Part shown: positions 5,224 through 54,656 of the stretch, piece after piece
How positions within the stretch are numbered: position 1 is the first letter of the stretch
Layout: each line of letters opens with the position of its first letter
From: an uncultured Candidatus Saccharibacteria bacterium
GTDB lineage: Bacteria > Patescibacteriota > Minisyncoccia > Phycocordibacterales > WO2-35-19
Assembly: GCA_964440955.1 (NCBI GenBank)
Contig: CAYTTP010000003.1
Location: forward strand, 1 to 56,332
Direction of reading: 5' to 3'
Length of the DNA stretch: 56,332 nucleotides
Program-made: the position numbers and the translations under genes
Notes under the pieces: generated by a model
What the model was told of the DNA's origin: nothing
The model's database searches: none
Seen by the model: the letters and a program-made list of their open reading frames with translations, nothing else

Positions 5224-6507
5224 ATGACCAAATTTCAGGTTTTTCTTTTTGGGACTTTCCTGGTTTTTATAGTTGTTGGGGTTTTCATATTTTCAAACTA
5301 TAGAGGTGACTCTGAAGGTTCGGTGCCGGTCGTCGTTTGGGGTACTCTACCTACCAACACTTTTCAGTCGGCTGTCCAGGTGTCGGGTTTATATCAAAAC
5401 GAAAGTTACTCGGTGACCTATGTCGAAAAAAGTGAGGACTCTATCGATGCTGATTTTATTGAAGCGCTTGCTTCTGGCAGTGGTCCCGACCTATTTTTGC
5501 TTCCATCAAACAAAATAATCCTCCATCGCAACAAAATTTATGCCTTGCCTTACGACTTAATCACCGAACGTGATTTTAAGGATTATTTTATCGAAGGTAG
5601 TGAAATATACATGACGCCCGAAGGTGTGGTCGGCTTGCCGCTTTTGGTCGACCCGCTTGTCATGTATTGGAATAGGGATATTTTCACCGATGTCGGCCTA
5701 GTCGCCACACCAAAATATTGGGACGAATTTTTTGATCTTGCGGCTAAGATTTCAGTCAAGGATGGAGCTCTCAATGTTTCAAGGAGCGCAGTCGCTTTTG
5801 GCGAGTATGCAAACATTGCAAACGCCAAAGACATAGTGTTAAACCTTGCCCTTCAAGCTGGGACACCTATCACTATTTGGGAAAATGGCAAGGTAAGGAG
5901 TGTCTTTGCGGAGTCTTTGGGCAAGCCGACGGTCCCAGGGGACGCGGCGGTCAATTTTTATACCGAATTTAGCAACCCATCAAAAGCTTCGTACTCGTGG
6001 AATCGCGCCCTCCCCAACTCGACCAATTTTTTTCTAGCTGGTGACTTGGCTCTATATTTTGGCTTTGCAAGTGAAATCGGAACTTTGCAGCTCAAAAATC
6101 CAAACCTCAATTTTGATGTCGCAAGTACTCCTCTTTCGCGTGAAGGCGGGGTCAATGTTTCGCTCGGCAACTATCTTGGAGTGTCTGTGGTTAAAGCTTC
6201 AAAAAATCCAGCAGCTGCTTACGCTGTTGCCTCCATATTGGCTGGTACCGATAGTGTGAAAGCTCTCTCTCAAGCTCTTGATTTGCCACCGGCAAGGCGC
6301 GATTTGCTAAGTGAGAGGCAAGTAAGCGCACATCGTAGTGTGTTTTATACAAGTGCCATCCGCTCACGCAGCTGGCTTGACCCTTCACCCAAGGTTTCAA
6401 ATACTATTTTTAAAGACATGATAGAATCAATCACGAGCGGTCGAGCTCGGGCGGGGGAGGCAGTGACCCGCGTAGAGCGTGAATTAAATGCCTTGTTCAA
6501 CAAATAA
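5224..6507 (+). CDS. extracellular solute-binding-like protein with N-terminal membrane anchor
   Basis: 427 aa with an N-terminal TM helix. PDLFLL, VMYWNRDIF and LALYFGFASE segments resemble family-1 ABC substrate-binding proteins. No permease or ATPase gene is adjacent. Confidence 0.55.
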   Translation: MTKFQVFLFGTFLVFIVVGVFIFSNYRGDSEGSVPVVVWGTLPTNTFQSAVQVSGLYQNESYSVTYVEKSEDSIDADFIEALASGSGPDLFLLPSNKIILHRNKIYALPYDLITERDFKDYFIEGSEIYMTPEGVVGLPLLVDPLVMYWNRDIFTDVGLVATPKYWDEFFDLAAKISVKDGALNVSRSAVAFGEYANIANAKDIVLNLALQAGTPITIWENGKVRSVFAESLGKPTVPGDAAVNFYTEFSNPSKASYSWNRALPNSTNFFLAGDLALYFGFASEIGTLQLKNPNLNFDVASTPLSREGGVNVSLGNYLGVSVVKASKNPAAAYAVASILAGTDSVKALSQALDLPPARRDLLSERQVSAHRSVFYTSAIRSRSWLDPSPKVSNTIFKDMIESITSGRARAGEAVTRVERELNALFNK

Positions 6508-6514
6508 AAAATAA

Positions 6515-6952
6515 ATGAATCGTCAAAATTTTAAAAAAGTTTTCACTATTGTTTTGGTACTTGCTCTTGTGGCGAGCGTCATCCTACCTCTCTTCACTTC
6601 GGCTCAAACCACTGATGATTCTAATCCACTCGTCCCTTGCGGTGGTCCTGGCCAAAAAGCTTGTGGCTATTACGACTTGTTGCGACTTGTGAACAATCTC
6701 ATTGATTGGGTGATCAAAATATCCATCCCTATTTCGGCCGGCATTTTTGCTTGGGCAGGTATTCAATATATGATGACGGGTGTTATGGACAAAAAAGCTC
6801 AAGCCAAAAAAATGCTAATGAATACCTTTTGGGGTTTTGTTTTTATTCTCTCTGCTTGGATTATAGTGTCGCTTGTGATAAATACCTTGCTCAATCCGGA
6901 GTATCGGGCTGATGTTGATGATACAATAAATCTAACCAAACCAACCAACTAA
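6515..6952 (+). CDS. pilin-like small membrane protein (TrbC/VirB2-like, CPR T4SS-pilin type), long form
   Basis: Signal/TM segment, Cys pair (VPCGGPGQKACGY), then a two-helix hairpin with WAGIQYMMTG...AKKML...FILSAWIIV. Confidence 0.6.
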   Translation: MNRQNFKKVFTIVLVLALVASVILPLFTSAQTTDDSNPLVPCGGPGQKACGYYDLLRLVNNLIDWVIKISIPISAGIFAWAGIQYMMTGVMDKKAQAKKMLMNTFWGFVFILSAWIIVSLVINTLLNPEYRADVDDTINLTKPTN

Positions 6953-6954
6953 CC

Positions 6955-7371
6955 ATGAAAACATTTTTTAAAAAATATTTTTTTGTTTCGCTGATTACTT
7001 GTATTCTATCTTTGTCCTTTTTACCAAGCAGTTTATACTCTCAAGATGGTGGCAATCCTGGTGCTGGGGGTGGTAATCCGGGAGGTGGTTCCTCTTACCC
7101 AATCAAAATAGCAAACCCATTTAAACAAAGCAGTATCACCGACCTTATCACTATAATCATCAAAGAAATATTGATGCCAATAGGGGCAGTGATTGCGGTA
7201 CTTATGATCATGTATGCTGGTTTTATGTATGTTACTGCTCAAGGCAATTCAACTAAAATCACCGAAGCCACTAAAGCTCTCAAATATGCCGTCATCGGCT
7301 CAGCCATCCTTATCGGCGCTTGGACTATTTCCGAAGCTATTAGGGCGACTGTCGGTCAATTAAGGGTATAA
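6955..7371 (+). CDS. pilin-like small membrane protein, long form with Gly-rich spacer
   Basis: Signal peptide, GGNPGAGGGNPGGG spacer, then MYAGFMYVTAQGN...ATKALKYAVIGSAILIGAW, as in the preceding paralog. Confidence 0.6.
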   Translation: MKTFFKKYFFVSLITCILSLSFLPSSLYSQDGGNPGAGGGNPGGGSSYPIKIANPFKQSSITDLITIIIKEILMPIGAVIAVLMIMYAGFMYVTAQGNSTKITEATKALKYAVIGSAILIGAWTISEAIRATVGQLRV

Positions 7372-7387
7372 TTAAAACTCTAACAGG

Positions 7388-7669
7388 ATGAAAAACTTAA
7401 CCGAATTTATAACTTTTTTTACCGATATGGGGCTTAGGCTTGTACCACTATTTGCTGTCCTCGCCTTCATGTATTTTGTGTGGGGAGTAGCACGCTTCAT
7501 CAAAGCGGCGGGCAATGAAAAAGAGGTGGGGGACAGCAAAAAGATACTTATTTGGGGTGTTGTCGGCCTACTCGTGCTTACAAGTATTTGGGGTATTATT
7601 TCCTTTCTCAAAGGTGAGCTAAGATTTGGCGACAATGTTGGTATTCCTCAAATAAAATTTGAAAATTAG
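7388..7669 (+). CDS. pilin-like small membrane protein, short form
   Basis: 93 aa with two hydrophobic helices. Shared motif: YFVWGVARFIKAAGNEKE...LIWGVVGLLVLTSIWGII. Confidence 0.6.
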   Translation: MKNLTEFITFFTDMGLRLVPLFAVLAFMYFVWGVARFIKAAGNEKEVGDSKKILIWGVVGLLVLTSIWGIISFLKGELRFGDNVGIPQIKFEN

Positions 7670-7679
7670 ATGAAATAAA

Positions 7680-7949
7680 ATGAATGATTTTATTGATAAA
7701 GGTTATTCGATTATCACCAATACTCTCATCCCGCTTGGGTACTTTGTTTGCCTCTTTTACTTTGCTTGGGGTATTGCAAAGTACATCAAATCGATCGGTG
7801 ACGGCAAGGAGCAGGGCAGGCAAATAATGATTTGGGGAGTAGTTGGCCTTTTTGTAGTTACGAGTATTTGGGGTATTATTGAATTTATAAAGCTCGAAGT
7901 TGGCTTGCCTTTCGATAATTCAGAGCTCGATGCAAAAGTTTATAGGTAA
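7680..7949 (+). CDS. pilin-like small membrane protein, short form
   Basis: 89 aa. Motif: YFAWGIAKYIKSIGDGKEQGRQIMIWGVVGLFVVTSIWGII. Confidence 0.6.
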   Translation: MNDFIDKGYSIITNTLIPLGYFVCLFYFAWGIAKYIKSIGDGKEQGRQIMIWGVVGLFVVTSIWGIIEFIKLEVGLPFDNSELDAKVYR

Positions 7950-7961
7950 AAATATAAAAAC

Positions 7962-8318
7962 ATGAAAAATAATTTTAAAAAAATAATTCCGGTTTCCCTC
8001 TTCCTTTTACCAATTTTAACAAGCGCTCAACTTGATGGGACAGACAAATTTTTTGGGAAAGCAAAGTCAATCGTAAGTGATACTTTGGTACCAGGAGCAT
8101 TTTTTGTAGCCCTCGTGTATTTCTTCTACGGTATCGCCAAATACATCAAGTCTGAAGGTGCCGGCAAAGCCGAAGGCAAAATGATCATGGTGTGGGGAGT
8201 GGTCGCTTTGTTTGTTGCTTCGTCAGTTTGGGGTTTGGTCACTCTTTTACAAAAGGAAATAGGGATAAACAGTAACCCTGGCAGTATGAAAATACCAACT
8301 TTAGAAACATATAGATAA
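7962..8318 (+). CDS. pilin-like small membrane protein, short form with signal peptide
   Basis: 118 aa. Motif: YFFYGIAKYIKSEGAGKAEGKMIMVWGVVALFVASSVWGLV. Confidence 0.6.
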   Translation: MKNNFKKIIPVSLFLLPILTSAQLDGTDKFFGKAKSIVSDTLVPGAFFVALVYFFYGIAKYIKSEGAGKAEGKMIMVWGVVALFVASSVWGLVTLLQKEIGINSNPGSMKIPTLETYR

Positions 8319-8323
8319 TATTT

Positions 8324-8620
8324 ATGCTTACAAACACCGAAACTTTTTTGAATCAAGCTATTACTCTTTTGACCAATAGAGTCATACCTATTGTCTTTAT
8401 CCTCGCTACGCTCTACTTCTTTTGGGGCATTGTCAAATACATCAAGTCGGAAGGTGCTGGCAAAGCTGAAGGAAAAGCCATTATGGTGTGGGGAGTAGTA
8501 GCCCTTTTTGTGATGACTAGCGTATGGGGCATCGTTCGCTTGTTGAGAGTTGATTTGCTTAGTGGGCAGGACACCAACAGTATCCAAATCCCAACCGCCA
8601 CTTACGGTACTACTCGCTAA
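8324..8620 (+). CDS. pilin-like small membrane protein, short form
   Basis: 98 aa. Motif: YFFWGIVKYIKSEGAGKAEGKAIMVWGVVALFVMTSVWGIV, near-identical core to the previous gene. Confidence 0.6.
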   Translation: MLTNTETFLNQAITLLTNRVIPIVFILATLYFFWGIVKYIKSEGAGKAEGKAIMVWGVVALFVMTSVWGIVRLLRVDLLSGQDTNSIQIPTATYGTTR

Positions 8621-8751
8621 CCACTTCCCACCTACTCCCTACTCCCTCTGTGGATTACTTTTTGCTTGCAAAGGCAAAAAATGGTAAAGTAATGGTAAAT
8701 TAAAAATGTTTATTCATTTTAATTATTATTAAAAAGTATTTGCTAAATTAA

Positions 8752-9096
8752 ATGAAAAAAGTATCTATAGCAGTAGCGATGGCTCTTTTGCCACTTTCAA
8801 CCTTTGCCCAACAGCTCGGCAATATCAGCAACTTAGTTGATAGCGCAAGCGGTATAATCAATAAGGTTATACCTATATTGTTTACACTTGCTTTGCTCGG
8901 CTTCTTTTGGGGCTTGGTCAGATTTCTTTTTGGTGGTGCTGAAGACAAGGATCAGGCAAAAAACATTATGATTTGGGGCGTAGTAGCGCTTGCGGTCATG
9001 GCTTCAGTTTGGGGATTGGTCAACTTCCTTGGTTCGGCATTTAACATCAACAAGGATGCCGCTCCTTCTGTAAACCCTCTTATTCCAAAACCTTAG
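8752..9096 (+). CDS. pilin-like small membrane protein, short form with signal peptide
   Basis: 114 aa. Motif: FFWGLVRFLFGGAEDKDQAKNIMIWGVVALAVMASVWGLV. Confidence 0.6.
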   Translation: MKKVSIAVAMALLPLSTFAQQLGNISNLVDSASGIINKVIPILFTLALLGFFWGLVRFLFGGAEDKDQAKNIMIWGVVALAVMASVWGLVNFLGSAFNINKDAAPSVNPLIPKP

Positions 9097-9114
9097 TTGG
9101 TCTTTGGTCTACAA

Positions 9115-9148
9115 AACAAAAGAGCCGTATTGTACGGCTCTTTTGTTT
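9115..9148. terminator. bidirectional intrinsic terminator-like hairpin
   Basis: AAAGAGCCGTA-TTG-TACGGCTCTTT, flanked by an A-run and a T-run. Confidence 0.75.
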
Positions 9149-9187
9149 TCCCTTGAATTTTATTACCTAACATTTAGAATTAGAAAT

Positions 9188-9220
9188 ATCACCCCTAGCC
9201 CCTCTTACTTTAAGAGGGGA
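9188..9220. repeat. TCACCCC-hairpin intergenic motif, copy 2
   Basis: ATCACCCCTAG followed by the hairpin CCCCTCTTA-CTT-TAAGAGGGG. The arms are the same as in copy 1. Confidence 0.55.
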
Positions 9221-9251
9221 ACAACAACTTAATTTTTAATTTTCAATCCTT

Positions 9252-9515
9252 ATGCCTGTCATCAAAAGCTTGCTCAATCAAATAGCCACACTCTTTTTGA
9301 ACCCGCTCATCATTCTTGGTTTTGTTGTTGCTACACTCTATCTTTTTTGGGGTATTGGGCAAATGATACTAAACGCCGACTCAAGCAAGCTCGACGAACA
9401 TCGGAAGGGAGTTATTTGGGGCGTTGTTGGCTTACTTATCATGTTCTCCGTTTACGGCATTCTCCGTCTTGTTATCCAAACTTTTGAGATCGAGTGTAAT
9501 TTGTATTTTTGTTAG
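9252..9515 (+). CDS. pilin-like small membrane protein, short form (divergent)
   Basis: 87 aa. Motif: LYLFWGIGQMILNADSSKLDEHRKGVIWGVVGLLIMFSVYGIL. Confidence 0.55.
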   Translation: MPVIKSLLNQIATLFLNPLIILGFVVATLYLFWGIGQMILNADSSKLDEHRKGVIWGVVGLLIMFSVYGILRLVIQTFEIECNLYFC

Positions 9516-9558
9516 TTCCATTTAGAAAAATAAAAAAATAAGCATGAAAAAAGGGGCG

Positions 9559-10371
9559 CTAGCGCGCCCCTTTCGGTGGGAAGAACATGATGCCCACCTC
9601 CATTTTGCCTGGGTCCCGCTTGCGAACCCAGAGTTTCTCGGCATTCAGATGCACCCGCACCTTTGCTGCTGGGTCGAAACTCCTCTTTTCTCCCCGCTCG
9701 TTCAGGTATTCGATTGCCTCTTTTGTCGAGATGTTGTAAGTCCAGTTTACAGGGATTGTGACCCCTCCATTAAAGGTCTCACTATCTACCTCCAATTTGT
9801 AGGAGAACTCCCTGCCGATCTTCGGCGCCCAGCACTGAGCACTTCCGTGCCAAGCGATGAGCCCGACTTCATGGTACATTTTGACCATCTTCTGAAACTT
9901 CTCCTGAGTCTCAAAAAGGTCGGTCTCACACATCGCGACGGCTCGGAGTTCTTTTGGAGCCTTTGAGAGCATTCGCTCAAAGTTTTTCCTCTCCTTGAAT
10001 TCTTTGGCGGTTAGATCTCCACGGTCTACCACCGTATATGCTGTGGTGAGGAAAGCCACAGCTAAGATTGCTCCTAACCATTTTGCTGCTTTTTGAGCAG
10101 TCGGGTGGGGCTTCTTATCTGGGCCTTCCAAGGTATTCAAGAGGGCAACAATGAAGATGCCTAAATTGAAGACAACCAGAGAAAGTCCAGAAAAAAACAA
10201 GATTCTCCACATCCATGGTATGGCCTGGGAGATCAGCACATTGGCTAAAACAAGAGAGCCAATAATGATGATGGTATTATTCTTAAGTCTCTGCTGCTCT
10301 TCGGGTGTACCCGCAAGCATCAGAAGAAGCTTCTTGATTTTATTTGTGTTCATTTGTACCTCTCTTACCAT
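9559..10371 (-). CDS. hypothetical membrane protein with soluble C-terminal domain
   Basis: 270 aa with 3-4 hydrophobic helices in the N-terminal half. The stop sits inside the GC hairpin AAAGGGGCGC-TAGC-GCGCCCCTTT. Probably co-transcribed with the upstream SPFH gene. Confidence 0.5.
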   Translation of the reverse strand: MVREVQMNTNKIKKLLLMLAGTPEEQQRLKNNTIIIIGSLVLANVLISQAIPWMWRILFFSGLSLVVFNLGIFIVALLNTLEGPDKKPHPTAQKAAKWLGAILAVAFLTTAYTVVDRGDLTAKEFKERKNFERMLSKAPKELRAVAMCETDLFETQEKFQKMVKMYHEVGLIAWHGSAQCWAPKIGREFSYKLEVDSETFNGGVTIPVNWTYNISTKEAIEYLNERGEKRSFDPAAKVRVHLNAEKLWVRKRDPGKMEVGIMFFPPKGAR

Positions 10372-10437: not shown

Positions 10438-11895
10438 TTATGGGTGAGGTTTCGGTGTTGCTGTGGGGTTCGTGGGTGGGGGTGGGGCTGAAGTAGGAGT
10501 GGTTACTATGGTCTGTACTGCTTTGGTTAGTGATCCAATAATGGATAAATCCATCGGCAGGATCACACCTCCTTTCCCTTGACTGGCTTCAACTGCCGCT
10601 TCAGTTTTCACAATGAGTTCACCCATAGGTGAATCACCGAGTGCGGCAATCTTAGCTTTGATACCAGCGGCTTCAGCAAGCATGTCAGCTTGTTTAGCTG
10701 ATGCATTACCTGCTCCTTCGTTGATCTTCTTTTTCTTGTCACCTTCAGAGATGTTAATCGTCGACTGCCGGGTACCCTCTGAAGCAGTGACGATAGCGGC
10801 TTTTTTGTAGCCAGCCTCCACTGCGTGCGCCATCTCCTTATTGACGTCTTTGGGGAAACCAGGGTCTTTGATGGAGACACTGATTAGATTTACTCCTAGG
10901 TTCGGGTTGGGGTTAGTAAGGCCTTGTTGGCTATTCGGCTCCCCGATCAACTGTTCGATTCGGTATCTGATAATAGCGCAAACAATGTCTTTGTGTGCGT
11001 TCATCATACCTGCCGTCATGACACCGGTGAGCTCTTGGATTGTTCCCTTTGCCACATTAGCGATATTTCTACTCAGTGTTTCAATATCACCAAGAGTAGA
11101 AATGAACTTGCCAGCGTCCTCGATCCTGTATGACAGGATTAGGCGTGGTTCGCATGTGATGGCTTGGTGTAGTGGGTCGTTCTTTGATTTCCCGTACTTC
11201 TGCACTTCTGGTAATCCTATCCTTAGGGCATCTGGGATATTACCTATGGTCCCTTTTGCCAAGAGGAGAGCGTCTATCGACGGGAAAGTCACTCTGAATG
11301 GCGCTCTGTCCAGAAAAGTGTTGTTGATTTTATCATCCACAATTGCTTTTCCGAGTGTATCTGTAAGATGGGACCCAACCTCCGTTTGGATGACATTTTC
11401 AGTCACTGTCTCTATCCTGTTTAATAAGGCAAAGACATAGTATAGGCCAGGCCCGACCTTCCCCTTATTGCGTTCAAGTTGGAGTCTTACCCCAATTTCG
11501 CCAATGACGACTCTTTTGAAGCTTATCAGTACATGCAGTGTAACTGCGATGCATGCGAGAGGCAGCCAGTTTGACTCTTCATCGCTTAGCACCATCCCCA
11601 CCATGATTACGGTAGGGTATGTTACTAGCGCTAACAAGGCATCAATCTGTGATAACAATGACTGGGGCCCGTTTACGGGAGGTATGTACTTAAACAACCT
11701 CCTGCCGTAGTATATTGTGGCCACTAGCATCGCAATTCCCACGGCATAGATGATATTCCACGGGAAACCATAGGTGACTACGCTTTGTAGCCATCCCCAG
11801 ATTTCTTTCAGTCTTGCTACTGTGTTTATTACTGCCACGAGTAGCCCGAGGATACCACCGGCCCACCATGCAATCTTCTTCTTTCTGGGCGACAT
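10438..11895 (-). CDS. SPFH/band-7 (flotillin/prohibitin-like) domain membrane protein
   Basis: 485 aa with N-terminal TM helices. The central region has SPFH-like character, followed by an Ala/Lys-rich coiled segment (EGDKKKKINEGAGNASAKQADMLAEAAGIKAKIAAL) and a Pro/Thr tail. Confidence 0.7.
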   Translation of the reverse strand: MSPRKKKIAWWAGGILGLLVAVINTVARLKEIWGWLQSVVTYGFPWNIIYAVGIAMLVATIYYGRRLFKYIPPVNGPQSLLSQIDALLALVTYPTVIMVGMVLSDEESNWLPLACIAVTLHVLISFKRVVIGEIGVRLQLERNKGKVGPGLYYVFALLNRIETVTENVIQTEVGSHLTDTLGKAIVDDKINNTFLDRAPFRVTFPSIDALLLAKGTIGNIPDALRIGLPEVQKYGKSKNDPLHQAITCEPRLILSYRIEDAGKFISTLGDIETLSRNIANVAKGTIQELTGVMTAGMMNAHKDIVCAIIRYRIEQLIGEPNSQQGLTNPNPNLGVNLISVSIKDPGFPKDVNKEMAHAVEAGYKKAAIVTASEGTRQSTINISEGDKKKKINEGAGNASAKQADMLAEAAGIKAKIAALGDSPMGELIVKTEAAVEASQGKGGVILPMDLSIIGSLTKAVQTIVTTPTSAPPPPTNPTATPKPHP

Positions 11896-17249: not shown

Positions 17250-17362
17250 ATAAATTGACCAGTAAAGCCTTTGAAATGGCTCTGCTTATAATTTGCCACC
17301 ATCATAACAAAAAAAATTTTGATAATTTTTAAAAATGGGGATAGTGGGGTATCATTGTAGCT

Positions 17363-17761
17363 ATGGAACAGGGTGTCGAACAAAAAAAGCGCATCAAATG
17401 GTGGATGGCTGGGTGTTTAGTCGCGGTAGCGGTTACAATCGACCTGATCCAACTTTTATTGACTTTGGTTGTTGTTGGGGCTGTGATAAGTCCAATCATA
17501 ACTATAGGAGCAACAATGCTCTTTTGGACATGGTATAAAATGCTCGGCATTTCTTTTGTGACCAATCCCAAGCAAATTGCGACTCTTACTACACAATTTT
17601 TTGGTGAATTGATACCTGTAGTTGATGTACTCCCACTTTGGACTATTGGTACTATCGTCACCATTGTTATCACTAATTCGGAAGACAAGGGAGGTTTGTT
17701 GGGCAAAGTGACATCTATTGCCGACTCCGCTACTCACTTCACGAGTGTGAAGAAGGTTTAA
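17363..17761 (+). CDS. hypothetical membrane protein
   Basis: 132 aa with 3-4 hydrophobic helices. Confidence 0.45.
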   Translation: MEQGVEQKKRIKWWMAGCLVAVAVTIDLIQLLLTLVVVGAVISPIITIGATMLFWTWYKMLGISFVTNPKQIATLTTQFFGELIPVVDVLPLWTIGTIVTIVITNSEDKGGLLGKVTSIADSATHFTSVKKV

Positions 17762-17768
17762 AATTTTG

Positions 17769-17849
17769 TGCTGGGGGGGAGACTTGAACTCCCACGGATT
17801 ACTCCACTGGTTCCTAAGACCAGCGCGGCTACCATTACGCCACCCCAGC
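17769..17849 (-). tRNA. tRNA-Leu(UAG), class II, no CCA encoded
   Basis: Reverse complement: acceptor GCTGGGG/CCCCAGC, anticodon arm CTGGT-CTTAGGA-ACCAG, long variable arm, T arm GGGAG-TTCAAGT-CTCCC, A73. Confidence 0.88.
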
Positions 17850-18003
17850 AGTGATTTGTGTTCATATAATACATCAAATTGATTATTTTTAAAGTGTTTT
17901 ATGTATAAATAAAAATCAAGATACAAACTTTCACGGCCGTGAAAAGTTGTATCAAAAGCATATTTCTTTGATATGAGAAGTATGTTATAAATATTCTGAT
18001 CGC

Positions 18004-18076: not shown

Positions 18077-18239
18077 CAATATTGTTTCGCAATATTGTTC
18101 GACCGAGCACGCAAACTGCTTTGCGTGCGTGTAGGAAGTCGAAAGCCGGAGCCATGTTGAGCGAAGCGAAACAGGCGAGGCGGGGTCGCAAGATTTTGCT
18201 AAGCAAAATACTTGTGACCGACTCCTACCGGGCGGACAA
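18059..18239 (+). repeat. tRNA-3'-end-associated structured element, type A (tRNA-Lys copy 1), with 21-nt direct repeats
   Basis: CGACTCCTACCGGGCGGACAA lies at 18059-18079 and 18219-18239. The element carries TGTTCGACCG (antisense to the acceptor 3' strand), a CUGC-apex hairpin, GTAGGAAGTCG (antisense to CGACTCCTAC), a GAGCGAAGCGAA loop, and GGGGTCGCAAG-hairpin-ACTTGTGACC. Confidence 0.78.
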
Positions 18240-27135: not shown

Positions 27136-28056
27136 TTGTATAAATCAAATAAAATAGGTTATCCTCTGTTCGGAGGCCTTGTGGATAAACCTGCATTTGA
27201 AAGGTATTTTCTGAGAGATGTAAATCATCAGAGTGGTAGGGTGAAAAATCGAGAAATTTTTGCTCCAAACGATTCAATGCGTGAGGTGCAAGAGGGTATA
27301 GTGGCCAAACTTCGGTCTTTGGAGATTGAGATGCCGAGCGCGACTGGTGGTGTCAGGAATGGTTCGCCAGTCAATAACGTCCTCAAACATTGGTCACCTT
27401 ACAATAAGAGTGCGAGATACTTTTTTCTGCTTGATCTAGCATCTGCTTACAAGAATGTCCTTGTGAGCGATATGTTAGTTGAACTGAAGAGGGTGTGGCC
27501 ACATGATTGCGACGAGAAGTTTGTTCAGAGTGTTATGAATCACTGCTTGATACCGGGTGAGGGTTTGGCAACTGGAGGTAACGCCTCGCCAGATATTTTC
27601 AACCTATGTATGGAGATTTCGATTGATCGGCAAATACGCTCGTATGCCGAATACAACGATCTCACCTACACTCGTTATCTCGATGATCTGACTTTCTCAT
27701 CTCCTTTTCCGATAGGTAAGAGGAAGAGGAATACGATCATCAAGATTCTCACTGAAGCTGGTTGTGTCGTTAACCATCAAAAGTCTCAGGTGCTTGATAT
27801 CGAAAAGCATCATGTGGAAATAAATGGTATCGGCTTGCGTCGTAGCGGACACTTCTTCATGCCTAGTCGGGTCTTGGATGAGTTAAAAAACTTGCTCTAT
27901 CGGGCAACTAGAGGGGAGTCCATTTCCGATTCTCTCATTCAAGGCAAGATGGGCGGGTTCATCTATCTTAGGAGAAAAGGCTTGCTTGCTCTGACCGAGA
28001 GAGAACGTAATATCCTTCGACGGTACGAGCAATATCTGCCGTTGCGCCGGGGTTAA
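27136..28056 (+). CDS. reverse transcriptase, minimal stand-alone type (retron/defence-RT-like)
   Basis: RT motifs: NREIFAPNDSMREVQ, SATGGVRNGSPVNNVLKH, FFLLDLASAY, GLATGGNASPDIFNL, YTRYLDDLTFSS (27676-27687), VNHQKS, EINGIGL. The likely true start is GTG 27181, behind GGAGG at 27172-27176. Confidence 0.88.
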   Translation: MYKSNKIGYPLFGGLVDKPAFERYFLRDVNHQSGRVKNREIFAPNDSMREVQEGIVAKLRSLEIEMPSATGGVRNGSPVNNVLKHWSPYNKSARYFFLLDLASAYKNVLVSDMLVELKRVWPHDCDEKFVQSVMNHCLIPGEGLATGGNASPDIFNLCMEISIDRQIRSYAEYNDLTYTRYLDDLTFSSPFPIGKRKRNTIIKILTEAGCVVNHQKSQVLDIEKHHVEINGIGLRRSGHFFMPSRVLDELKNLLYRATRGESISDSLIQGKMGGFIYLRRKGLLALTERERNILRRYEQYLPLRRG

Positions 28057-28130: not shown

Positions 28131-28535
28131 ATGTCCAGTATCTCGAATAGAGAAATGACATTTGTTGTAGCTGTTCTGTACTCTTTGCCCGAAAAGTGGC
28201 GAGGGGTTGGCCGTTCTTTCTCGTTTGAGGATGTGCAAGATAGGCTACATCTTGCTTGGCATAGACTCTATCAAGAAGGATTGCTTGGGGAGTTTGGTGA
28301 ATCGTTTTCTTTTGACGCTCTTTGTGGCTCAGACAGTCTTGGGCAAGCACTTCGCACAGCTGCGGTAGATGGGCTCATAAGGATCGGTGGCTCTGATATG
28401 GCTTATCATGTTGATGTCCTGAAGCCTGACCAAATTGATCGTATGTTAGAGTCGTGCGTAATAGACCGAAGTGCCGTGACTACTGCTGTCAAACGTCTCG
28501 AAGCTATTCTCGAAGAGAAACCCTCCCCGGCTTAG
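28131..28535 (+). CDS. hypothetical 134-aa protein, RT-associated
   Basis: Strong RBS GGAGGAGG 7 nt upstream of the ATG. Same strand as the RT and 74 nt after it. No motif recognised. Confidence 0.6.
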   Translation: MSSISNREMTFVVAVLYSLPEKWRGVGRSFSFEDVQDRLHLAWHRLYQEGLLGEFGESFSFDALCGSDSLGQALRTAAVDGLIRIGGSDMAYHVDVLKPDQIDRMLESCVIDRSAVTTAVKRLEAILEEKPSPA

Positions 28536-28597: not shown

Positions 28598-28681
28598 GCG
28601 TCGGTGGTAGAGTGGTCAATTACAACAGACTGTAAATCTGTCGCCCATTGGGCTACGCAGGTTCGAATCCTGCCCGGCGCA
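28598..28681 (+). tRNA. tRNA-Tyr(GUA), class II, no CCA encoded
   Basis: Acceptor GCGTCGG/CCGGCGC, anticodon arm CAGAC-TGTAAAT-CTG, long variable arm CGCCCATTGGGC, T arm GCAGG-TTCGAAT-CCTGC, A73. Confidence 0.88.
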
Positions 28682-28872
28682 CAAAATAAAACCCAGCTTC
28701 TGCTGGTGTTTTATTTTGTGCGCCGGAAGTGCAGCTTTGTGTAGCAAAGCGTAGCACGGATTCGAAAGGCGGAAGAAATTTTTTAGCAAAAAAATTTCTG
28801 AGCCGGGGTCGCGAGCGATTTTGCTTGACTGAAGCAAAATCGACTTGTGACCGAATCCTGCCCGGCGCACCA
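28664..28872 (+). repeat. tRNA-3'-end-associated structured element, type A (tRNA-Tyr copy), with 19-nt direct repeats
   Basis: CGAATCCTGCCCGGCGCAC lies at 28664-28682 and 28852-28870; the second copy reads through to ...ACCA. Internal antisense segments are GTGCGCCGG (28718-28726) and GCACGGATTCG (28754-28764). The 3' module GGTCGCGAG-hairpin-CTTGTGACC is at 28807-28852. Confidence 0.8.
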
Positions 28873-31986: not shown

Positions 31987-33495
31987 ATGAGCAATCAACA
32001 ACGCATAGGGGCACTTATCAAAAGTCTTAGGGAAAGGAGAGGTCTCACTCAGCAGGAATTTGCAAAACACCTTAAGACTTCACAGAGTGCGGTAGCGCGA
32101 ATGGAAAGTGGTAATCAAAATTTTACTTCTAAAGAAATAGAGAAAATAAGTGAGGCATTAGATCGCAAGATAATAGCTCTCGATGAAAGTATCGATTTTA
32201 AGATTGAGGGTGGGTATCGTCTTAAAGGTTCTGTTGATACAAACCCATCTAAAAATGGTGCGTTGGGTTTGCTTTGTGCTTCTCTTTTAAACAAATCAAA
32301 GACTACACTTCATGGTATTCCAAAGATTGAGGAAGTTTTTCGTTTGATCGAGGTTTTTAAGAGTATTGGCATTTCTGTCTCTTGGGTTGGTCCTCAATCA
32401 TTAGAAATAATTCCTCCAAAAAAATTTAGTATAAAAAATATAAATAATAAATCTGCTGGCAAAATACGCTCAGTCCTCATGATGATTGGTGCCTTGATTC
32501 ATCACGAAAAGGAGTTTCGCATACCACATGCTGGTGGTTGCAAAATGGGCGAGCGAACAATAGAAGCTCATCGGCACGGACTCAACTCACTCGGTGTTTC
32601 TATTATGACAGGTGAAGATTCTTATAAAATTTCTAGTGGTAAATTGTCCGCTACTCCTATTGTCATGTATGAATCAAGTGATACCGCGACAGAAAACATT
32701 TTGATAGCTGCCTCACTTATACCTGGCAAAACAGTCATTGAATTTGCTCCGCCAAATTACCAAGTACAGGAAGTTTGTTTTTTCTTGGAGACTTGCGGAG
32801 TAAAGATTGAAGGTATCGGTACAACCACGCTTACTGTACATGGTGTGTCTCAAATAGATAGACCGATCGAGTATCACAATAGCGAAGACCCGATTGAATC
32901 GATGATGTTTATCTCGGCTGGTATCACTACTAATTCGACGCTTACTATAAAGAGATGCCCCTATGATTTTTTGAAATTGGAAATGCTCAAACTAAAGAAG
33001 ATGGGGTTGAAGTACAAAATGAGTAAGCAATATTTTTCGCACAACGGTCGAACAAAACTTGTTGATATAACGGTCTACCCATCAAAGCTAGTGGCTCCAA
33101 GTGATAAGATACATGCTCAACCATACCCAGGTATAAACTCTGACAACCTTCCGTTTTTTGTACCGATTGCTACTCAAGCAGAAGGGCGCACTCTCATCCA
33201 TGATTGGATGTGGGAAAATAGAGCTATCTATTTTACTGAAATCAATAAACTTGGAGGTTCAGTAGCGCTCGCTGATCCACATAGGGTATTTGTAAACGGA
33301 CCAACCAAACTTTCAGGTACTCAAGTAGTTTGTCCACCGGCACTACGTCCAGCAATGATTATTTTGATTGCAATGCTTTCAGCTAAGGGGACATCGATCC
33401 TTCGAAATGTATACTCGATTTATCGTGGTTATGAGGAAATAGCAGAGCGTCTCAACGCTCTCGGTGCTAAAATACAAGTAATAAAAGGAATGTAA
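31987..33495 (+). CDS. murA: XRE-type HTH domain fused to UDP-N-acetylglucosamine 1-carboxyvinyltransferase
   Basis: N-terminal region of about 65 aa: LRERRGLTQQEFAKHLKTSQSAVARMESG (HTH_3-like). The remainder has the MurA/EPSP-synthase fold with PSKNGAL and the catalytic-Cys loop PHAGGCKMGERT. Confidence 0.85.
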   Translation: MSNQQRIGALIKSLRERRGLTQQEFAKHLKTSQSAVARMESGNQNFTSKEIEKISEALDRKIIALDESIDFKIEGGYRLKGSVDTNPSKNGALGLLCASLLNKSKTTLHGIPKIEEVFRLIEVFKSIGISVSWVGPQSLEIIPPKKFSIKNINNKSAGKIRSVLMMIGALIHHEKEFRIPHAGGCKMGERTIEAHRHGLNSLGVSIMTGEDSYKISSGKLSATPIVMYESSDTATENILIAASLIPGKTVIEFAPPNYQVQEVCFFLETCGVKIEGIGTTTLTVHGVSQIDRPIEYHNSEDPIESMMFISAGITTNSTLTIKRCPYDFLKLEMLKLKKMGLKYKMSKQYFSHNGRTKLVDITVYPSKLVAPSDKIHAQPYPGINSDNLPFFVPIATQAEGRTLIHDWMWENRAIYFTEINKLGGSVALADPHRVFVNGPTKLSGTQVVCPPALRPAMIILIAMLSAKGTSILRNVYSIYRGYEEIAERLNALGAKIQVIKGM

Positions 33496-48684: not shown

Positions 48685-49476
48685 ATGCAGGAAAAGCGCT
48701 TTCAAGAAAGGGCGTCAAGCCGGATAGCTTCGCGCAATAAATTTCGCCACCAGATGCTTGTCGGCTTCAGGATTTTTTTGTTGCTCTGTTTTATTTCGTT
48801 TTTGATATTTTTTTTGAGAACTGAAAAACTGCAAATCCAAAATGTTGAGGTTTTTGGAGTAGTGGAAAGCGAAGCTCGGGAGGTGCGTTTGGCGGCGCTC
48901 GCGTTTTTGGCCAAACCAAAACTAGCCATTGTGCCGGGTACTCATACTCTTTTTATAAATGAAGACGCACTTGCAAAATATCTCAAGCAAAAATCCCAAT
49001 CGATCGAGCAACTAGAAGTCAGTACCGAAATTTGGAATCGAAAAGTTCAAATTTCTTTACTTGAATACTCGGCTGATTTTTTGTGGTGCCGAGGTGAAGC
49101 CGAGTGTTTCAATATGACAAAAGATGGTTTGGTTTTTGAGAGGTCGTCTGAAAGTGGGGGCAAGCTGATTTTTAAAGGTTTGTTGGAAGGAGAACCTGTT
49201 TCCCAAAAATTTGCTACTCCGGAGCGTATGCGAGAGTTTGCTGAAATAGCTACGCTTCTTGCTTCGAAAAATATGAGCGTTTCCTTAATTGAAATTGTTT
49301 CTTTACATAAGGGAGTCATGAAAACTTTAGGGTGTGACATTGTCTTTGATCCAGAAGGAAAGATCGTTGAACAAGTCAAAAATGCTATTACTGTGATTGA
49401 AGACCTTGCCTTGCACGGCGAGGCAGATGTGGAGTATGTGGATGCAAGATTTGGTAACAAAGTTTTTTACAAGTGA
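48685..49476 (+). CDS. FtsQ/DivIB-like membrane protein (POTRA-like), tentative
   Basis: Basic N-terminus, one TM helix, then LQIQNVEVFGV..., which is typical of a POTRA start. Confidence 0.4.
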   Translation: MQEKRFQERASSRIASRNKFRHQMLVGFRIFLLLCFISFLIFFLRTEKLQIQNVEVFGVVESEAREVRLAALAFLAKPKLAIVPGTHTLFINEDALAKYLKQKSQSIEQLEVSTEIWNRKVQISLLEYSADFLWCRGEAECFNMTKDGLVFERSSESGGKLIFKGLLEGEPVSQKFATPERMREFAEIATLLASKNMSVSLIEIVSLHKGVMKTLGCDIVFDPEGKIVEQVKNAITVIEDLALHGEADVEYVDARFGNKVFYK

Positions 49477-49488
49477 TATAATTTTTAA

Positions 49489-49890
49489 ATGAGCTCAACT
49501 TATCATACCGAGTCTTATTTGGTTGCTTATCTGCACTTTCATTATGGTCGAGGTCTACGTGAACTTTTGGGAGTGGCTCAAAATTTACTCTGGTTCATTC
49601 TTCACTTCTTTTCGATAAAACTTTTGTTCCGGACACTTTTTGCGCCGTGGCATCGTTTGGGTGAAGCTTATGGCTCCATTATCAACTTTGAAGCTTTCTT
49701 TTCTGTTTTTATTGTGAATATATTGATGAGGTTGGTTGGTTTTGTGACTAGAAGTGTGGTTATTGTGATGGGCTTGATCGCTTATGTTGTCACCTTTGTT
49801 GGTTCGGTAGCGATGTTTTTGGTTTGGGTTTTTGCTCCGATTTTGTTTGTTGGGATGCTTGTTTTGTCGATAACTTTTTTTGCCATATAA
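49489..49890 (+). CDS. hypothetical membrane protein
   Basis: 133 aa with three hydrophobic helices. Confidence 0.45.
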   Translation: MSSTYHTESYLVAYLHFHYGRGLRELLGVAQNLLWFILHFFSIKLLFRTLFAPWHRLGEAYGSIINFEAFFSVFIVNILMRLVGFVTRSVVIVMGLIAYVVTFVGSVAMFLVWVFAPILFVGMLVLSITFFAI

Positions 49891-49893
49891 AAC

Positions 49894-52311
49894 ATGACTT
49901 TCAAACACTTGCAGGAAATTTCGGTCCCTCATTTCTACGCTCTTGCGATTGATCGTTTTTTGCCAGAGAGGGTGAGGTTATTTTTGCGATATCTAGCTCT
50001 TGTGACCGCAGCTGTTTCTTTTGCTTCTTCGTTTGGCTCTCTCCCTCTATATTTTGGTTATGGTGATGCGATTTTCTTTTTGAGTATTTCTATTTATCTT
50101 TTGCTTTCCTGTCTTGAGTTTTTTTATCGTTCCAGCAAAAACGAAGGTATAGGTCGGATGCGGATAATAGAAAATATCGCGGGCGGCCCAGAGATAGATT
50201 ATAGTCTTTCTTCTATTATTTTTGCCACTGACGAGATAGATGCGACTCGCGCTATTTTTGAAACAAAAGTTGGCAAGGAGGTGCTTTTGCGAAGCGGACT
50301 CTCTCTTGAAATGATCCAAAAATTTATCCATTCGGATCGACATCCCATCATTTCCTCTTCACTTTCGTATGGTGATGGTGAAGTAGTTGGTTTTGTATCG
50401 TATCTTGAAACTATCTACGAAGCCGACGAAAGCTTCCGTTCTTTTTTGTCGAGGTATGCAGTCACTCGAGAAGATTTTTTGGGAGCGGCCGCTTGGGTTG
50501 GTCATAAAGAAGCCAAAAAGAGAAGGGAAAATCGTTTTTGGAGCAGGGAAAATTTGGGAGCTATCCCCTCGATTGGTACGAGTTGGGCTTATGGTATGCC
50601 CTATGATTTAAACGAATATGGCCGACCTTTCAATGACGCCCTGCTTGTGCCGATAGATCTTGAAAATGGTTATCGTCAAAAAGAAGTAGAAACTTTGGAA
50701 GGTGTGCTGACGCGAGTGAGCGAAGCAAATGCGATAATAATAGATGACGACGAGAGTGTGGTTCGGGATATTTTGGCGCGCTTTGTCAAAAACATAAAGC
50801 TCGGCACCATCATGCCAGCTCTCGAACACAAACAACTTATTGAGCTTGATTGGCAGTCGCTTGTTTCTAATTTTAAAGACAAATCAGCTTTCGAAAACCA
50901 ATTTATGAAAATAATGCAGGAGTCGGCTCTTGCTGGCAATGTTTTGCTTTATATTCCCGACTTGTCTGGATTTATTTCTAGATTAAAAAATGCGGGCATC
51001 AATCTGTCTTCACTTATTTCGCCATACCTTGCTTCTTCAAGACTTCATATTATCACTCACGCAACGACAGCCGACTTTCATTTTTTTATTGAAACGAGTA
51101 GCGCTTTGCTTGGCAGGTTTGAGCGTATCATTCCTGAGCCGGCAGGCGCTCCGGCTACTACTTCTGTTTTGCTTGAGCAATCAACTATTTTGGAAGAGAG
51201 ATACCAGATTATTTTTTCGTATCCTTCACTTGTTTCGCTTGTTGAAGCGGCGGAGCGGTTTGTTACCTATGGAGAGATGCCGGGCAAGGCTTTGGATTTG
51301 ATTTATGAGATTGCGCCTTGGGCAGCTGAAAAAGGAGACGATATAGTTTCTAAACAAGATGTTGCTGTTTTTGTTTCAGGCAAGACAGGTATCAAAACAG
51401 GCGAAATACAAGCTGATGAGATGGAGCGGATCGAGCATCTCTCGGAGGCTTTGCACAAGCGAGTAGTCGGTCAAAACGAAGCGGTAGAGGCGGTGGTTGG
51501 TGCTATTCGTCGTTCGCGTTCGGGGATAGGCAATCCAAAGCGTCCAATTGCCTCCTTTTTGTTTTTGGGTCCGACCGGAGTGGGCAAAACCGAAGTATCA
51601 AAGGCGCTTGCTGAGAGTTTTTTTGGTGATGAACATAAGATGATTCGTTTTGATATGTCAGAGTACGATGCACCCGACGCTCTACCTCGCCTTATTGGCA
51701 ATTTTGCGGAAAACAAAAAAGGCATACTCGCGAGCAAGGTTCGCGACAATCCATACAGTGTTCTCTTGCTCGATGAGTTTGAAAAAGCTTCGCCAGATGT
51801 ACTCGATTTGTTTTTGCAGGTACTCGACGAGGGAGTTTTTAGTGATGCGGAAGGTAAACCGGTTGGTTGTCGAAACTTGATTATTATTGCAACCTCAAAT
51901 GCTGGAGCGGAATATATTTGGGAAAAAGCAAAAACTGGAAGTTTGGTAGCAGCGAAGGACGAGATTGTGGACAATATAGTTAAAGACCATGTGTTTAAAC
52001 CAGAACTTCTAAACCGTTTTGATGGTGTTATTTTATTTCATCCGCTTGAAAAGACTGATCTCGAACATGTGACTCGTATTGGCTTGGAAAAATTGGTCTC
52101 TCGTCTCAAAGAAAAAAATATTGAATTTGTCGTTTCTGATTTTTTGGTTAAACATGTAGCGGCAAAAGGTGAGGATCCAAAGTTTGGTGGGCGGGCGATC
52201 AATCGCGCTATTCAAAGCGAGGTGGAGGATGTGGTTGCGCGAAAAATAGTGAGTGGGGAGGTGAAGCCGGGTTCTAAATTGGAGCTTACTCAAGCTGATT
52301 TCAATAGTTGA
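49894..52311 (+). CDS. membrane-anchored Clp/Hsp100-family AAA+ protein with degenerate first nucleotide-binding domain
   Basis: N-terminal TM helices. The region collinear with ClpB NBD1 lacks Walker A (AIIIDDDESVVRD where ClpB has [11 protein letters not shown]) and Walker B (LLYIPDLSG). NBD2 is intact ([17 protein letters not shown]). Confidence 0.8.
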   Translation: MTFKHLQEISVPHFYALAIDRFLPERVRLFLRYLALVTAAVSFASSFGSLPLYFGYGDAIFFLSISIYLLLSCLEFFYRSSKNEGIGRMRIIENIAGGPEIDYSLSSIIFATDEIDATRAIFETKVGKEVLLRSGLSLEMIQKFIHSDRHPIISSSLSYGDGEVVGFVSYLETIYEADESFRSFLSRYAVTREDFLGAAAWVGHKEAKKRRENRFWSRENLGAIPSIGTSWAYGMPYDLNEYGRPFNDALLVPIDLENGYRQKEVETLEGVLTRVSEANAIIIDDDESVVRDILARFVKNIKLGTIMPALEHKQLIELDWQSLVSNFKDKSAFENQFMKIMQESALAGNVLLYIPDLSGFISRLKNAGINLSSLISPYLASSRLHIITHATTADFHFFIETSSALLGRFERIIPEPAGAPATTSVLLEQSTILEERYQIIFSYPSLVSLVEAAERFVTYGEMPGKALDLIYEIAPWAAEKGDDIVSKQDVAVFVSGKTGIKTGEIQADEMERIEHLSEALHKRVVGQNEAVEAVVGAIRRSRSGIGNPKRPIASFLFLGPTGVGKTEVSKALAESFFGDEHKMIRFDMSEYDAPDALPRLIGNFAENKKGILASKVRDNPYSVLLLDEFEKASPDVLDLFLQVLDEGVFSDAEGKPVGCRNLIIIATSNAGAEYIWEKAKTGSLVAAKDEIVDNIVKDHVFKPELLNRFDGVILFHPLEKTDLEHVTRIGLEKLVSRLKEKNIEFVVSDFLVKHVAAKGEDPKFGGRAINRAIQSEVEDVVARKIVSGEVKPGSKLELTQADFNS

Positions 52312-53586: not shown

Positions 53587-54118
53587 ATGGTCAACTTTGA
53601 ACCTGGAGAGGAAGTGATGCTTGTCGTACGTAGGCACTATTTTGTTCTTCTGCCTTTTGTCTTGGCGCTTATCTTGCTTGCAGTATTACCGCTTTTTTTT
53701 GAAAACTTTTTTCACTAGCCAATTTTTGGCACTTGATCCAAGTTTGATCGGAGGCTTTTTGAGTTTTATTGATGAATGGGGAGGGTTTGCTTACTCCGTT
53801 TGGTTTTTTATTTTATGGATGATTTTTTTCATTGAGTGGACCGACTACTATTTGGATTTTTGGGTTATCACAAATCGGCGCATTGTTGATGCCGAACAGA
53901 TAGGGTTTTTCAGGAGGCAGGTGGTGAGTTTGGGTTACGAACAAATTCAAGACATCACAGTCGAGACTAAAGGCTTCATTCGCACTATCTTCAATTTTGG
54001 GACGCTTCATATTCAAACTGCCGGTGAACGTAATGATATAGTGATCAGTGACGCTCATTTTCCCGAGGATGCTAGATCTTTGATTTTGAAACTCCAAGAG
54101 CAATCCAAAGCCAGATAG
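53587..54118 (+). pseudogene. bPH2 (YdbT-like, DUF304) membrane protein with a frameshift at a T-run
   Basis: Frame 1 (ATG 53587) gives MVNFEPGEEVMLVVRRHYFVLLPFVLALILLAVLPLFFENFFH, then TAG 53716. Removing one T from T6 (53707-53712) joins it to ...TSQFLALDP...LDFWVITNRRIV...GTLHIQTAG (track ORF 53621-54118). Confidence 0.6.
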
Positions 54119-54656
54119 CTCCGACGAGATAGCCCGCTAATACATCGGAGAGATAATGGACTCCAAGGTAGAGCCTGCTTAGACCGATCAAAAATATCAA
54201 GGTAGTTAGAAAAATTATCATTTTGTTTTTGAGATGATGTTTTTCGTGCTTGCCTGTCGTAGCTTGAAGAGAGGGAGGAGCGAAGTCGGGTTTCCAAATA
54301 AGAGAAATCAAAAAGCCATAGAGGGCGATTGCGATCGCGCTATGCCAACTTGGAAAGGAATGTGTACTTTCAAAATAAAATGCTCCAAGTGGTCGAGTGC
54401 GCTCAAAAAATTCTTTTAAAAAATAAACTGAAAAAGAACTACCGACAATTGAAACAATCAATCCCCATATCTTGTAAGTGTGTTTGTGTATAAACAAGGA
54501 AAGGGAAGTGAGGATGGTCACGATCGCGACTACTGTGTACCCAGCCGAGTAAGTAACAATAAGCATGAGGGCAGAGAGCCATTCGCTTTGATGATTTATA
54601 AAAAAATGCAACACTACTTGGTCAATAAAATACATTACATTTATTATATACCACAA
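54072..54656 (-). CDS. PAP2-family phosphatase (undecaprenyl-diphosphatase-like)
   Basis: PAP2 motifs: ERTRP, SFPSWHS, SRLYLGVHYLSDV. Six TM helices. Confidence 0.8.
   Translation of the reverse strand: MWYIINVMYFIDQVVLHFFINHQSEWLSALMLIVTYSAGYTVVAIVTILTSLSLFIHKHTYKIWGLIVSIVGSSFSVYFLKEFFERTRPLGAFYFESTHSFPSWHSAIAIALYGFLISLIWKPDFAPPSLQATTGKHEKHHLKNKMIIFLTTLIFLIGLSRLYLGVHYLSDVLAGYLVGAIWLWIALGVSKSKI

Follow-up and report, generated by a model that had tools for sequence, protein, structure and literature searches.

Introduction

Tandem arrays of 2-11 VirB2-like pilin genes have been described in 383 Patescibacteria assemblies, where identity within an array averages 25% and reaches at most 54%, and pilin genes lie near virB4 in 1135 of 1948 assemblies (PMC12102498). 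In S. epibionticum ML1, six genes of the pilin family PF18895 (SEML1_0014-0019) sit in a type IV secretion system (T4SS) cluster, and each of them is scored essential by transposon sequencing (Tn-seq; PMC10633639). This is the only species in which the essentiality of the Patescibacteria T4SS and its pilin arrays has been tested, and reviews call their function unknown (PMC11665869, PMC12857230). Here we describe an array of eight pilin-like genes, g1 to g8, at positions 6515-9515 of contig CAYTTP010000003.1, a complete NCBI contig of 56,332 bp from a metagenome-assembled genome (MAG; the whole contig is hereafter the window), together with the gene for a solute-binding protein (SBP) that directly precedes it.

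We think it rather likely that the array encodes eight VirB2-type subunits, none of them redundant, which are expressed together with the SBP. On this view, a VirB4-type machine encoded far from the array would build them into a surface pilus or a conduit through which the cell interacts with its host. Within this reading, we infer the dependence on a T4SS, the formation of a filament and the role of the SBP.

Eight tandem genes belong to a T4SS pilin family

At 6515-9515 (+), eight ORFs lie side by side, every one initiated by ATG, exactly where an initial annotation of this DNA had placed eight tandem genes. They also fall into the two length classes that it had described, a long class with a signal peptide and either a Cys pair or a Gly-rich spacer, and a short class with a common core. 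The long class consists of g1 (6515-6952, 145 aa), with a signal peptide ending in TSA↓Q (the arrow marks the cleavage site) and the Cys pair C42/C50 (CGGPGQKAC), and g2 (6955-7371, 138 aa), with a signal peptide ending in LYS↓Q, a Gly-rich disordered spacer and an I.I.NPFK motif; both have two transmembrane (TM) helices. The short class, which shares the core YF.WGI.KYIKS...GK.IM.WGVVALFV..S.WG, comprises g3 (7388-7669, 93 aa), g4 (7680-7949, 89 aa), g5 (7962-8318, 118 aa, signal peptide TSA↓Q), g6 (8324-8620, 98 aa), g7 (8752-9096, 114 aa, signal peptide TFA↓Q) and g8 (9252-9515, 87 aa), the last with a C-terminal Cys pair (IECNLYFC). All are on the forward strand.

Direct reading of the proteins and their hydropathy shows that each has a pair of hydrophobic helices with a short Lys-rich loop between them. 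The N-termini of g1, g2, g5 and g7 resemble signal peptides; those of g3, g4, g6 and g8 do not, and in these four the first hydrophobic helix begins ~10-20 residues after the N-terminus. AlphaFold2 models agree with the two-helix hairpin topology proposed earlier: g6 folds as a hairpin of helices 2-41 and 46-79, and in g2 (pLDDT 79) the signal peptide is modelled as a helix and the Gly-rich spacer as disordered, ahead of the two helices 61-94 and 99-137. Each protein can thus be read as a two-helix membrane hairpin, for which the positive-inside rule predicts a cytoplasmic Lys-rich loop and outward-facing, variable N- and C-terminal tails. The signal peptides of g1, g2, g5 and g7 would be cleavable ([ST]-x-A↓Q; S↓Q in g2), and g3, g4, g6 and g8 would insert directly. 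Cleavage of the VirB2 signal peptide leaves an N-terminal Gln, and the signal-peptide-bearing members of the array would be comparable in this respect.

The initial annotation had also assigned the proteins to the VirB2/TrbC type of pilin, and profile searches uphold this assignment. PF18895 (T4SS_pilin; gathering score 26.6 bits) is the top Pfam match for all eight, with E-values from 1e-4 to 2e-10, and five exceed its cut-off: g1 (39.4 bits), g2 (41.0), g3 (31.0), g6 (32.5) and g7 (36.7). The other three, g4 (25.9 bits), g8 (24.2) and g5 (22.7), fall just under it and share 38-58% identity with array members above it. Such E-values, and the recurrence of the array in at least 80 other species, put the genes well outside what chance would produce. 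The TrbC/VirB2 family PF04956 (cut-off 27.9 bits) is matched above cut-off by g2 at 30.3 bits and below it by g1 at 18.3 bits, with no match for the six short genes; judged by sequence, g2 is the array member closest to VirB2/TrbC. A profile-profile comparison shows homology between the long (g2-type) and short (g6-type) classes (hhalign probability 96.8%, E 2.5e-10), and since the tie of the short class to TrbC/VirB2 runs through this alignment to the g2 class, it is indirect. All eight proteins also match NF045849, the pilin-like family of Mycoplasma integrative and conjugative elements (ICEs), weakly and below its cut-off of 40 bits (12-31 bits; best g2, 31.0 bits, E 1.4e-7).

Database relatives carry the same signatures. 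Nearly all of the 62 relatives of g6 have PF18895, and a search with g2 returned orthologs only, nearly all of them with both PF18895 and TrbC domains, one labelled by its source 'VirB2 component (pilin)'; 'pilin' is likewise the source-database label of some other relatives of the array proteins. Type IV pilins (T4P/T2SS) were considered and rejected: the proteins have no class III signal (G↓F/M-x-x-x-E), two helices each and no T4P Pfam match.

The array is an old, ordered set of positional classes

Related loci were collected in a scan that took a single genome from each species and used an alignment of the SBP; it yielded 500 stretches encoding a relative, of which the best 80 were taken. 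In these 80 species-level genomes, the SBP gene is followed by PF18895-like genes on the same strand, usually five to eight of them. When each related gene was assigned to the window gene that it matched best, the 68 loci with at least five genes could be tested for order. The classes were colinear with the window in 56 of the 68, compared with 0.21 expected from shuffling. Class 1 stood first in 67 of the 68 loci, class 2 took second place in 66, and class 8 closed the array in 60. Because class order is conserved to this extent, the array is both old and ordered.

The classes retain individual features as well. At least two Cys residues occur in 78 of 78 class 1 members, the I.I.NPFK motif is conserved after a low-complexity spacer in class 2, and 57 of 61 class 8 members have no signal peptide. 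Turnover concerns the middle of the array, where class 7 is the most often duplicated (111 members across the 80 loci).

The initial annotation had further held that adjacent short genes share near-identical core DNA, reflecting recent duplication or gene conversion. Neither statement survived comparison. The paralogs share 17-58% protein identity; at the DNA level, the best pairs reach only 79.6% over 98 bp (g5 and g6) and 80.7% over 57 bp (g3 and g4), and exact matches between array genes reach at most 18 nt. Given that there are no long identical tracts between the genes, there are no gene-conversion tracts. On syntenic contigs, each window gene finds its closest match in its positional counterpart in another species, not in its own neighbours: g3 shares 50-64% identity with its positional orthologs in the 25 nearest species, and g4 has positional orthologs in the nearest species. 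Only g5 and g6 look like a lineage-level extra copy. They are 53% identical and both best match gene 4 of related locus L007, and a pair of class 5 genes also occurs in the eight-gene arrays of loci L011 and L012.

Median identity to the 25 nearest species is 83% for GyrA, 61% for the SBP and 46-57% for the pilins; the pilins evolve fast, yet they are retained. Three further array-bearing contigs are 100% identical to the window, and in comparisons across species, genes whose proteins are 46-57% identical would have saturated synonymous sites.

A sugar-type solute-binding protein leads the array

The SBP gene (5224-6507, +) opens the conserved module and ends 7 bp 5' of g1. It encodes 427 aa with an N-terminal membrane anchor and SBP_bac_1/SBP_bac_8 domains (Pfam E-values 5.5e-18 and 9.7e-18). 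A profile search of the PDB with the SBP returned sugar-binding proteins only, the best being 4r9f (E 7.6e-16), and by sequence the SBP is a distant relative within sugar/oligosaccharide-binding family 1. No ABC permease or ATPase gene was found near the SBP gene in the window or in the related loci examined.

Linkage between the SBP and the pilins is tight. In 78 loci, the pilin array directly follows the SBP gene with a median gap of 1 bp from stop to first ATG; the gap is at most 20 bp in 70 of the 78, and in 28 the genes overlap, mostly by 4 bp. Wherever sequence exists, pilin genes lie immediately 3' of the SBP gene in all 80 loci selected by the SBP. Sampling from the pilin side, through contigs that encode g6 relatives, gave the arrangement gyrA, an optional methyltransferase gene, SBP gene and array in six of six. 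The junction 5' of the SBP gene is looser, since a methyltransferase gene or a transposase may intervene there. At locus L090, for instance, a Y1 (IS200/IS605-type) transposase (L090 6244-6891, -) and a small ORF stand between gyrA and the SBP gene; the SBP-pilin junction of that locus is free of insertions, which fits this junction being the constrained one.

From the SBP gene through g6, the spacing is 2-16 bp; g7 is preceded by a wider gap of 131 bp and g8 by one of 155 bp. The spacer 5' of class 7 (~90-100 bp) is conserved across loci. Downstream of g7 lies a hairpin (9113-9149, +) with a perfect 17-bp stem, a 3-nt loop and a U-run, resembling an intrinsic terminator or attenuator (dG -23.3 kcal/mol, z -5.6; none of 200 shuffles was as stable). 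In relatives, a hairpin with a T-run follows 25% of class 7 genes and 66% of class 8 genes. With its spacer and hairpin, g7 is a candidate for a subunit that is expressed separately. Between the g7 terminator and the start of g8, a 9-bp GC-rich hairpin at 9199-9219 (+; CCCCTCTTA...TAAGAGGGG; dG -14, z -3.6) could serve as a leader structure for g8. A further GC-rich hairpin (9550-9573) separates g8 from the convergent gene at 9559-10371 (-); the 85-nt stretch that holds it has a dG of -29.2 kcal/mol (z -4.3), and it is likely a bidirectional terminator ending the module. A scan for sigma-70 promoters found only weak 9-of-12 matches (15, against 9.9 expected) and was not used as evidence.

Secretion machinery in related genomes

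The initial annotation named a genome devoid of secretion machinery as grounds for refutation; relatives do have such machinery in their genomes. According to the tables of the published survey, VirB4 is listed in six of nine array-bearing assemblies, and for the genome of locus L071, Table S3 records a T4SS coupling protein gene (T4CP) as gene 136, VirB4 as 160, TrsD as 161 and VirB3 as 162 (PMC12102498). The same table gives a lone 'T_virB2' match at gene 409, far from VirB4 (PMC12102498), which is probably the g2-type gene of the array. From these gene positions, the machinery is present in relatives but ~250 genes away from the array. As this match is single, the thresholds of the survey catch only one member of the module, and arrays of this lineage seem to be under-detected at them.

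Genomic setting

The host belongs to the candidate phyla radiation (CPR), as the initial annotation had implied: the nearest relatives of the SBP are from Candidatus Zambryskibacteria MAGs (up to 65% identity), which GTDB places in the class Paceibacteria (Table S1, PMC12102498). The window itself is chromosomal and comes from a Paceibacteria MAG that is a close relative of Candidatus Zambryskibacteria. It holds the housekeeping genes gyrA, infB, clpB, mur genes, topA, parB, relA and serS as well as ten tRNAs, and among related genomes, a closed one of 742 kb (OZ246398.1) carries the array.

Two genes converge on the array from its 3' side, one for a 270-aa protein with no Pfam match (9559-10371, -) and one for a multi-TM protein of 485 aa that resembles SPFH/Band-7 and has a Pro-rich tail (10438-11895, -); SPFH-like genes again lie 3' of the array at loci L005, L007 and L090. 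The 485-aa protein, on the opposite strand, matches TrbI at 19.5 bits against a cut-off of 35 and was considered as a VirB10 candidate; we treat the match as probably spurious.

Further along the window, a 306-aa reverse transcriptase (RVT_1, E 1e-14) is encoded at 27136-28056 (+), followed on its 3' side by a 134-aa ORF without a Pfam match (28131-28535) and tRNA-Tyr (28598-28682). It is not obviously part of a diversity-generating retroelement, and such an element acting on the pilins was rejected, there being no template/variable repeat pair near it or anywhere in the window. A repeat of ~50-70 nt (77-79% identity) occurs at 1492-1537, 18177-18237 and 28800-28870, just 3' of the tRNAs for Ala, Lys and Tyr, and short inverted repeats lie at 28674-28726 and 28774-28799. 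A MurA-like enolpyruvyl transferase with a fused N-terminal HTH_3 (Xre-type) DNA-binding domain is encoded at 31987-33495 (+). At 49894-52311 (+) lies the gene for a second Clp/Hsp100-like protein (805 aa), in which domains are recognised at the C-terminal end only (AAA_2 and D2-small), the first 550 residues being unannotated; two ORFs without Pfam matches (48685-49476 and 49489-49890) precede it. Lastly, a full-length group I catalytic intron (Rfam RF00028, 78 bits; 54754-55016, +) sits between ORFs at 54072-54656 (-) and 55078-55452 (+).

Discussion

How might these pieces work together? PF18895 is the pilin family of the chromosomal, conjugation-independent T4SS of Patescibacteria, and the array proteins are paralogous members of it. 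The array would represent an old, ordered set of distinct subunits, opening with two long 'leaders', continuing with several short types and closing with one whose last place is fixed, perhaps akin to a set of major and minor pilins. That the subunits are non-redundant is suggested by ML1, because there each of six such genes is essential in Tn-seq. The pilin genes would share a transcript with the gene for the membrane-anchored, sugar-type SBP, and their translation would probably be coupled to that of the SBP. A machine of VirB4, TrsD and VirB3, possibly with VirB6, encoded elsewhere on the chromosome, would most likely extract the array proteins from the membrane and polymerise them into a surface pilus, or into a conduit for contact or exchange with host cells. 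Its partner for binding or sensing glycans would be the SBP, acting at this pilus or conduit or close to it.

Several observations weigh against this proposal. No VirB4, VirD4, VirB6 or other T4SS domain occurs among the scanned ORFs of at least 110 aa in the window, a scan that left aside nested ORFs and an overlapping set at 17329-17926; the earlier statement that the window holds neither VirB4 nor VirD4 is borne out to this extent. Nor was any gene of the VirB4-sized ATPase family or other T4SS gene found within 10 kb of the array in ~85 related loci. With no T4SS gene nearby, what links array and machine is the family to which the proteins belong and the co-occurrence of the two in other genomes. 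The tables list no VirB4 for three of the nine array-bearing assemblies, namely two small drafts (440 and 510 kb) and one that keeps VirB3 and TrsD (PMC12102498). In the L071 genome, a separate PF18895 pilin is recorded at gene 156, four genes from virB4 (Table S3, PMC12102498), and this pilin, rather than the array, could be the machine's own. At the level of the proteins, the four without a signal peptide (g3, g4, g6 and g8) lack what is typical of VirB2. Fold and sequence searches of solved structures recovered no VirB2/TraA pilin and only generic hairpins, helical hairpins being poorly discriminating, and with a profile built from all eight proteins, solved structures matched at chance level only (for example, a signal peptidase subunit at E 0.013), again without any VirB2/TraA; we count these structure searches as uninformative. 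Finally, no pilus has been seen to date in any Patescibacterium (PMC12857230).

In a different explanation, the assembly is centred on the SBP and independent of any T4SS: the seven or eight hairpin proteins would make up a fixed hetero-oligomer, or a short pseudopilus, that holds the SBP or presents it at the cell surface, or couples it to uptake or signalling. The tight SBP-pilin coupling in all loci examined and in all pilin-selected contigs speaks for it, as do the lack of both ABC permease/ATPase and T4SS genes nearby, a single-copy, fixed-order make-up that suits a defined complex, and the separate pilin adjoining virB4 in L071. In archaea, sugar-binding proteins are assembled with small pilin-like proteins into a 'bindosome', which offers a functional analogy; the bindosome pilins, however, are type IV pilins with a class III signal, a different family. 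Moreover, PF18895 and TrbC are otherwise tied to T4SS loci, the ML1 array lies inside a T4SS cluster with no SBP gene recorded in SEML1_0008-0019, and pilin genes at large are often near virB4 (the 1135 of 1948 assemblies above; PMC12102498). Gene order can also persist in streamlined genomes without functional coupling, and gyrA is syntenic here too. We regard such an SBP-centred assembly as unlikely. A related idea, to which we give similarly little credence, is that the SBP and its seven or eight pilins make up a functional unit of their own, the VirB2-type subunits building a surface structure that carries or serves the SBP; in its stronger version, this structure would work without the VirB4 machine. 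If true, it would tie the T4SS-type pilins of Patescibacteria to the capture or sensing of host glycans and not to the export of DNA or effectors.

Two other explanations seem more doubtful still. Variant pilins have been proposed for the VirB2 paralogs of Bartonella and Anaplasma and suggested for Patescibacteria (PMC12102498); applied here, the array would be a reservoir of alternative, interchangeable major subunits that arose recently through duplication or gene conversion and that vary the exposed surface, allowing a switch of host range or evasion. A conserved hydrophobic core with divergent N- and C-terminal tails would suit this, as would the duplication or loss of classes 4-7 between lineages and an evolution faster than that of GyrA and the SBP (46-57% median identity versus 83% and 61%). 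The DNA tells otherwise: there are no identical tracts (18 nt is the longest exact match, and similarity is at best 80% over 98 bp), orthologs in other species are closer than paralogs, order is conserved, and classes 1, 2 and 8 almost never leave their places. Six individually essential pilins, as in ML1, would be unexpected of redundant variants, and the tight operon shows no sign of expression one gene at a time, so that we consider a variant reservoir quite improbable. Equally improbable, to our minds, is that these are ordinary small inner-membrane proteins under a misleading Pfam label, for instance partners of the neighbouring SPFH/Band-7 protein. The generic hairpins of the structure searches, the three proteins under the Pfam cut-off, the frequent convergent SPFH-like neighbour and the placement among housekeeping genes are compatible with it. 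Yet g2 independently exceeds the curated TrbC/VirB2 cut-off and nearly all of its relatives have both domains, PF18895 proteins occur in the experimentally essential T4SS cluster of ML1, and the SPFH gene lies beyond a terminator, is read from the other strand and occurs in only part of the loci.

Returning to the assembly of distinct VirB2-type subunits by a VirB4 machine, a fixed, ordered and anciently conserved paralog set in a large Paceibacteria lineage favours a multi-subunit structure over a pool of recent variants. The sugar-type binding protein that always leads the array provides a concrete, testable partner, and such arrays appear to be under-counted at current HMM thresholds.

Comparison with known systems

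With eight tandem genes at 17-58% identity, the array falls within the definition of Patescibacteria VirB2 arrays (at least two VirB2-like genes of low identity, in tandem or with one non-pilin gene between them; PMC12102498). Its closest described counterpart is that of Candidatus Southlakia epibionticum ML1 (Saccharimonadia; Wang et al. 2023, PMC10633639), in which six divergent PF18895 proteins of 103-185 aa, some with a TrbC match, are likewise encoded in tandem on one strand. The ML1 array, however, is inside a T4SS cluster beside VirB4, PrgI and VirB6-like genes, with no SBP gene recorded in SEML1_0008-0019, whereas that of the window has eight members, four without a signal peptide, and stands behind an SBP gene near gyrA with no T4SS gene within 10 kb. 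The arrays surveyed by Quinonero-Coronel et al. 2025 (PMC12102498) resemble it in their low internal identity and in pilin genes that are often distant from virB4, but they are mainly from Microgenomatia and Saccharimonadia, and neither an SBP nor a conserved order is mentioned for them; two genomes that bear the module are listed there with only one VirB2 away from virB4. The main text of that survey makes no mention of a solute- or substrate-binding protein, SBP or gyrA, and a full-text search of the literature found no paper that links the PF18895 pilin family with a solute-binding protein.

Beyond Patescibacteria, Agrobacterium VirB2 and RP4 TrbC (PF04956) share the small size, the two hydrophobic helices and the short basic loop. 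Unlike these Gram-negative systems, the window belongs to a monoderm host, with many paralogs in place of one gene, no virB-type operon and half of the members lacking a signal peptide. The VirB2 arrays of Bartonella and Anaplasma (cited in PMC12102498) also consist of several tandem genes with divergent exposed parts; they are read as antigenic or host-adaptation variants, whereas in the window order and class are conserved and no recombination tracts were seen. Mbov_0395 and MMCAP2_0565 (NF045849) of Mycoplasma ICEs are small, two-TM, pilin-like proteins from a T4SS of the MPF-FATA kind in wall-less or monoderm cells, but they are single-copy and located on a mobile element, and the window proteins, below 40 bits, are not members of their family. 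The array of the window thus differs from those described in its SBP leader, its detachment from virB4, its positional classes and its four members without a signal peptide. Arrays of this sort have already been published, and to them the SBP-led, conserved order adds a modestly new twist.

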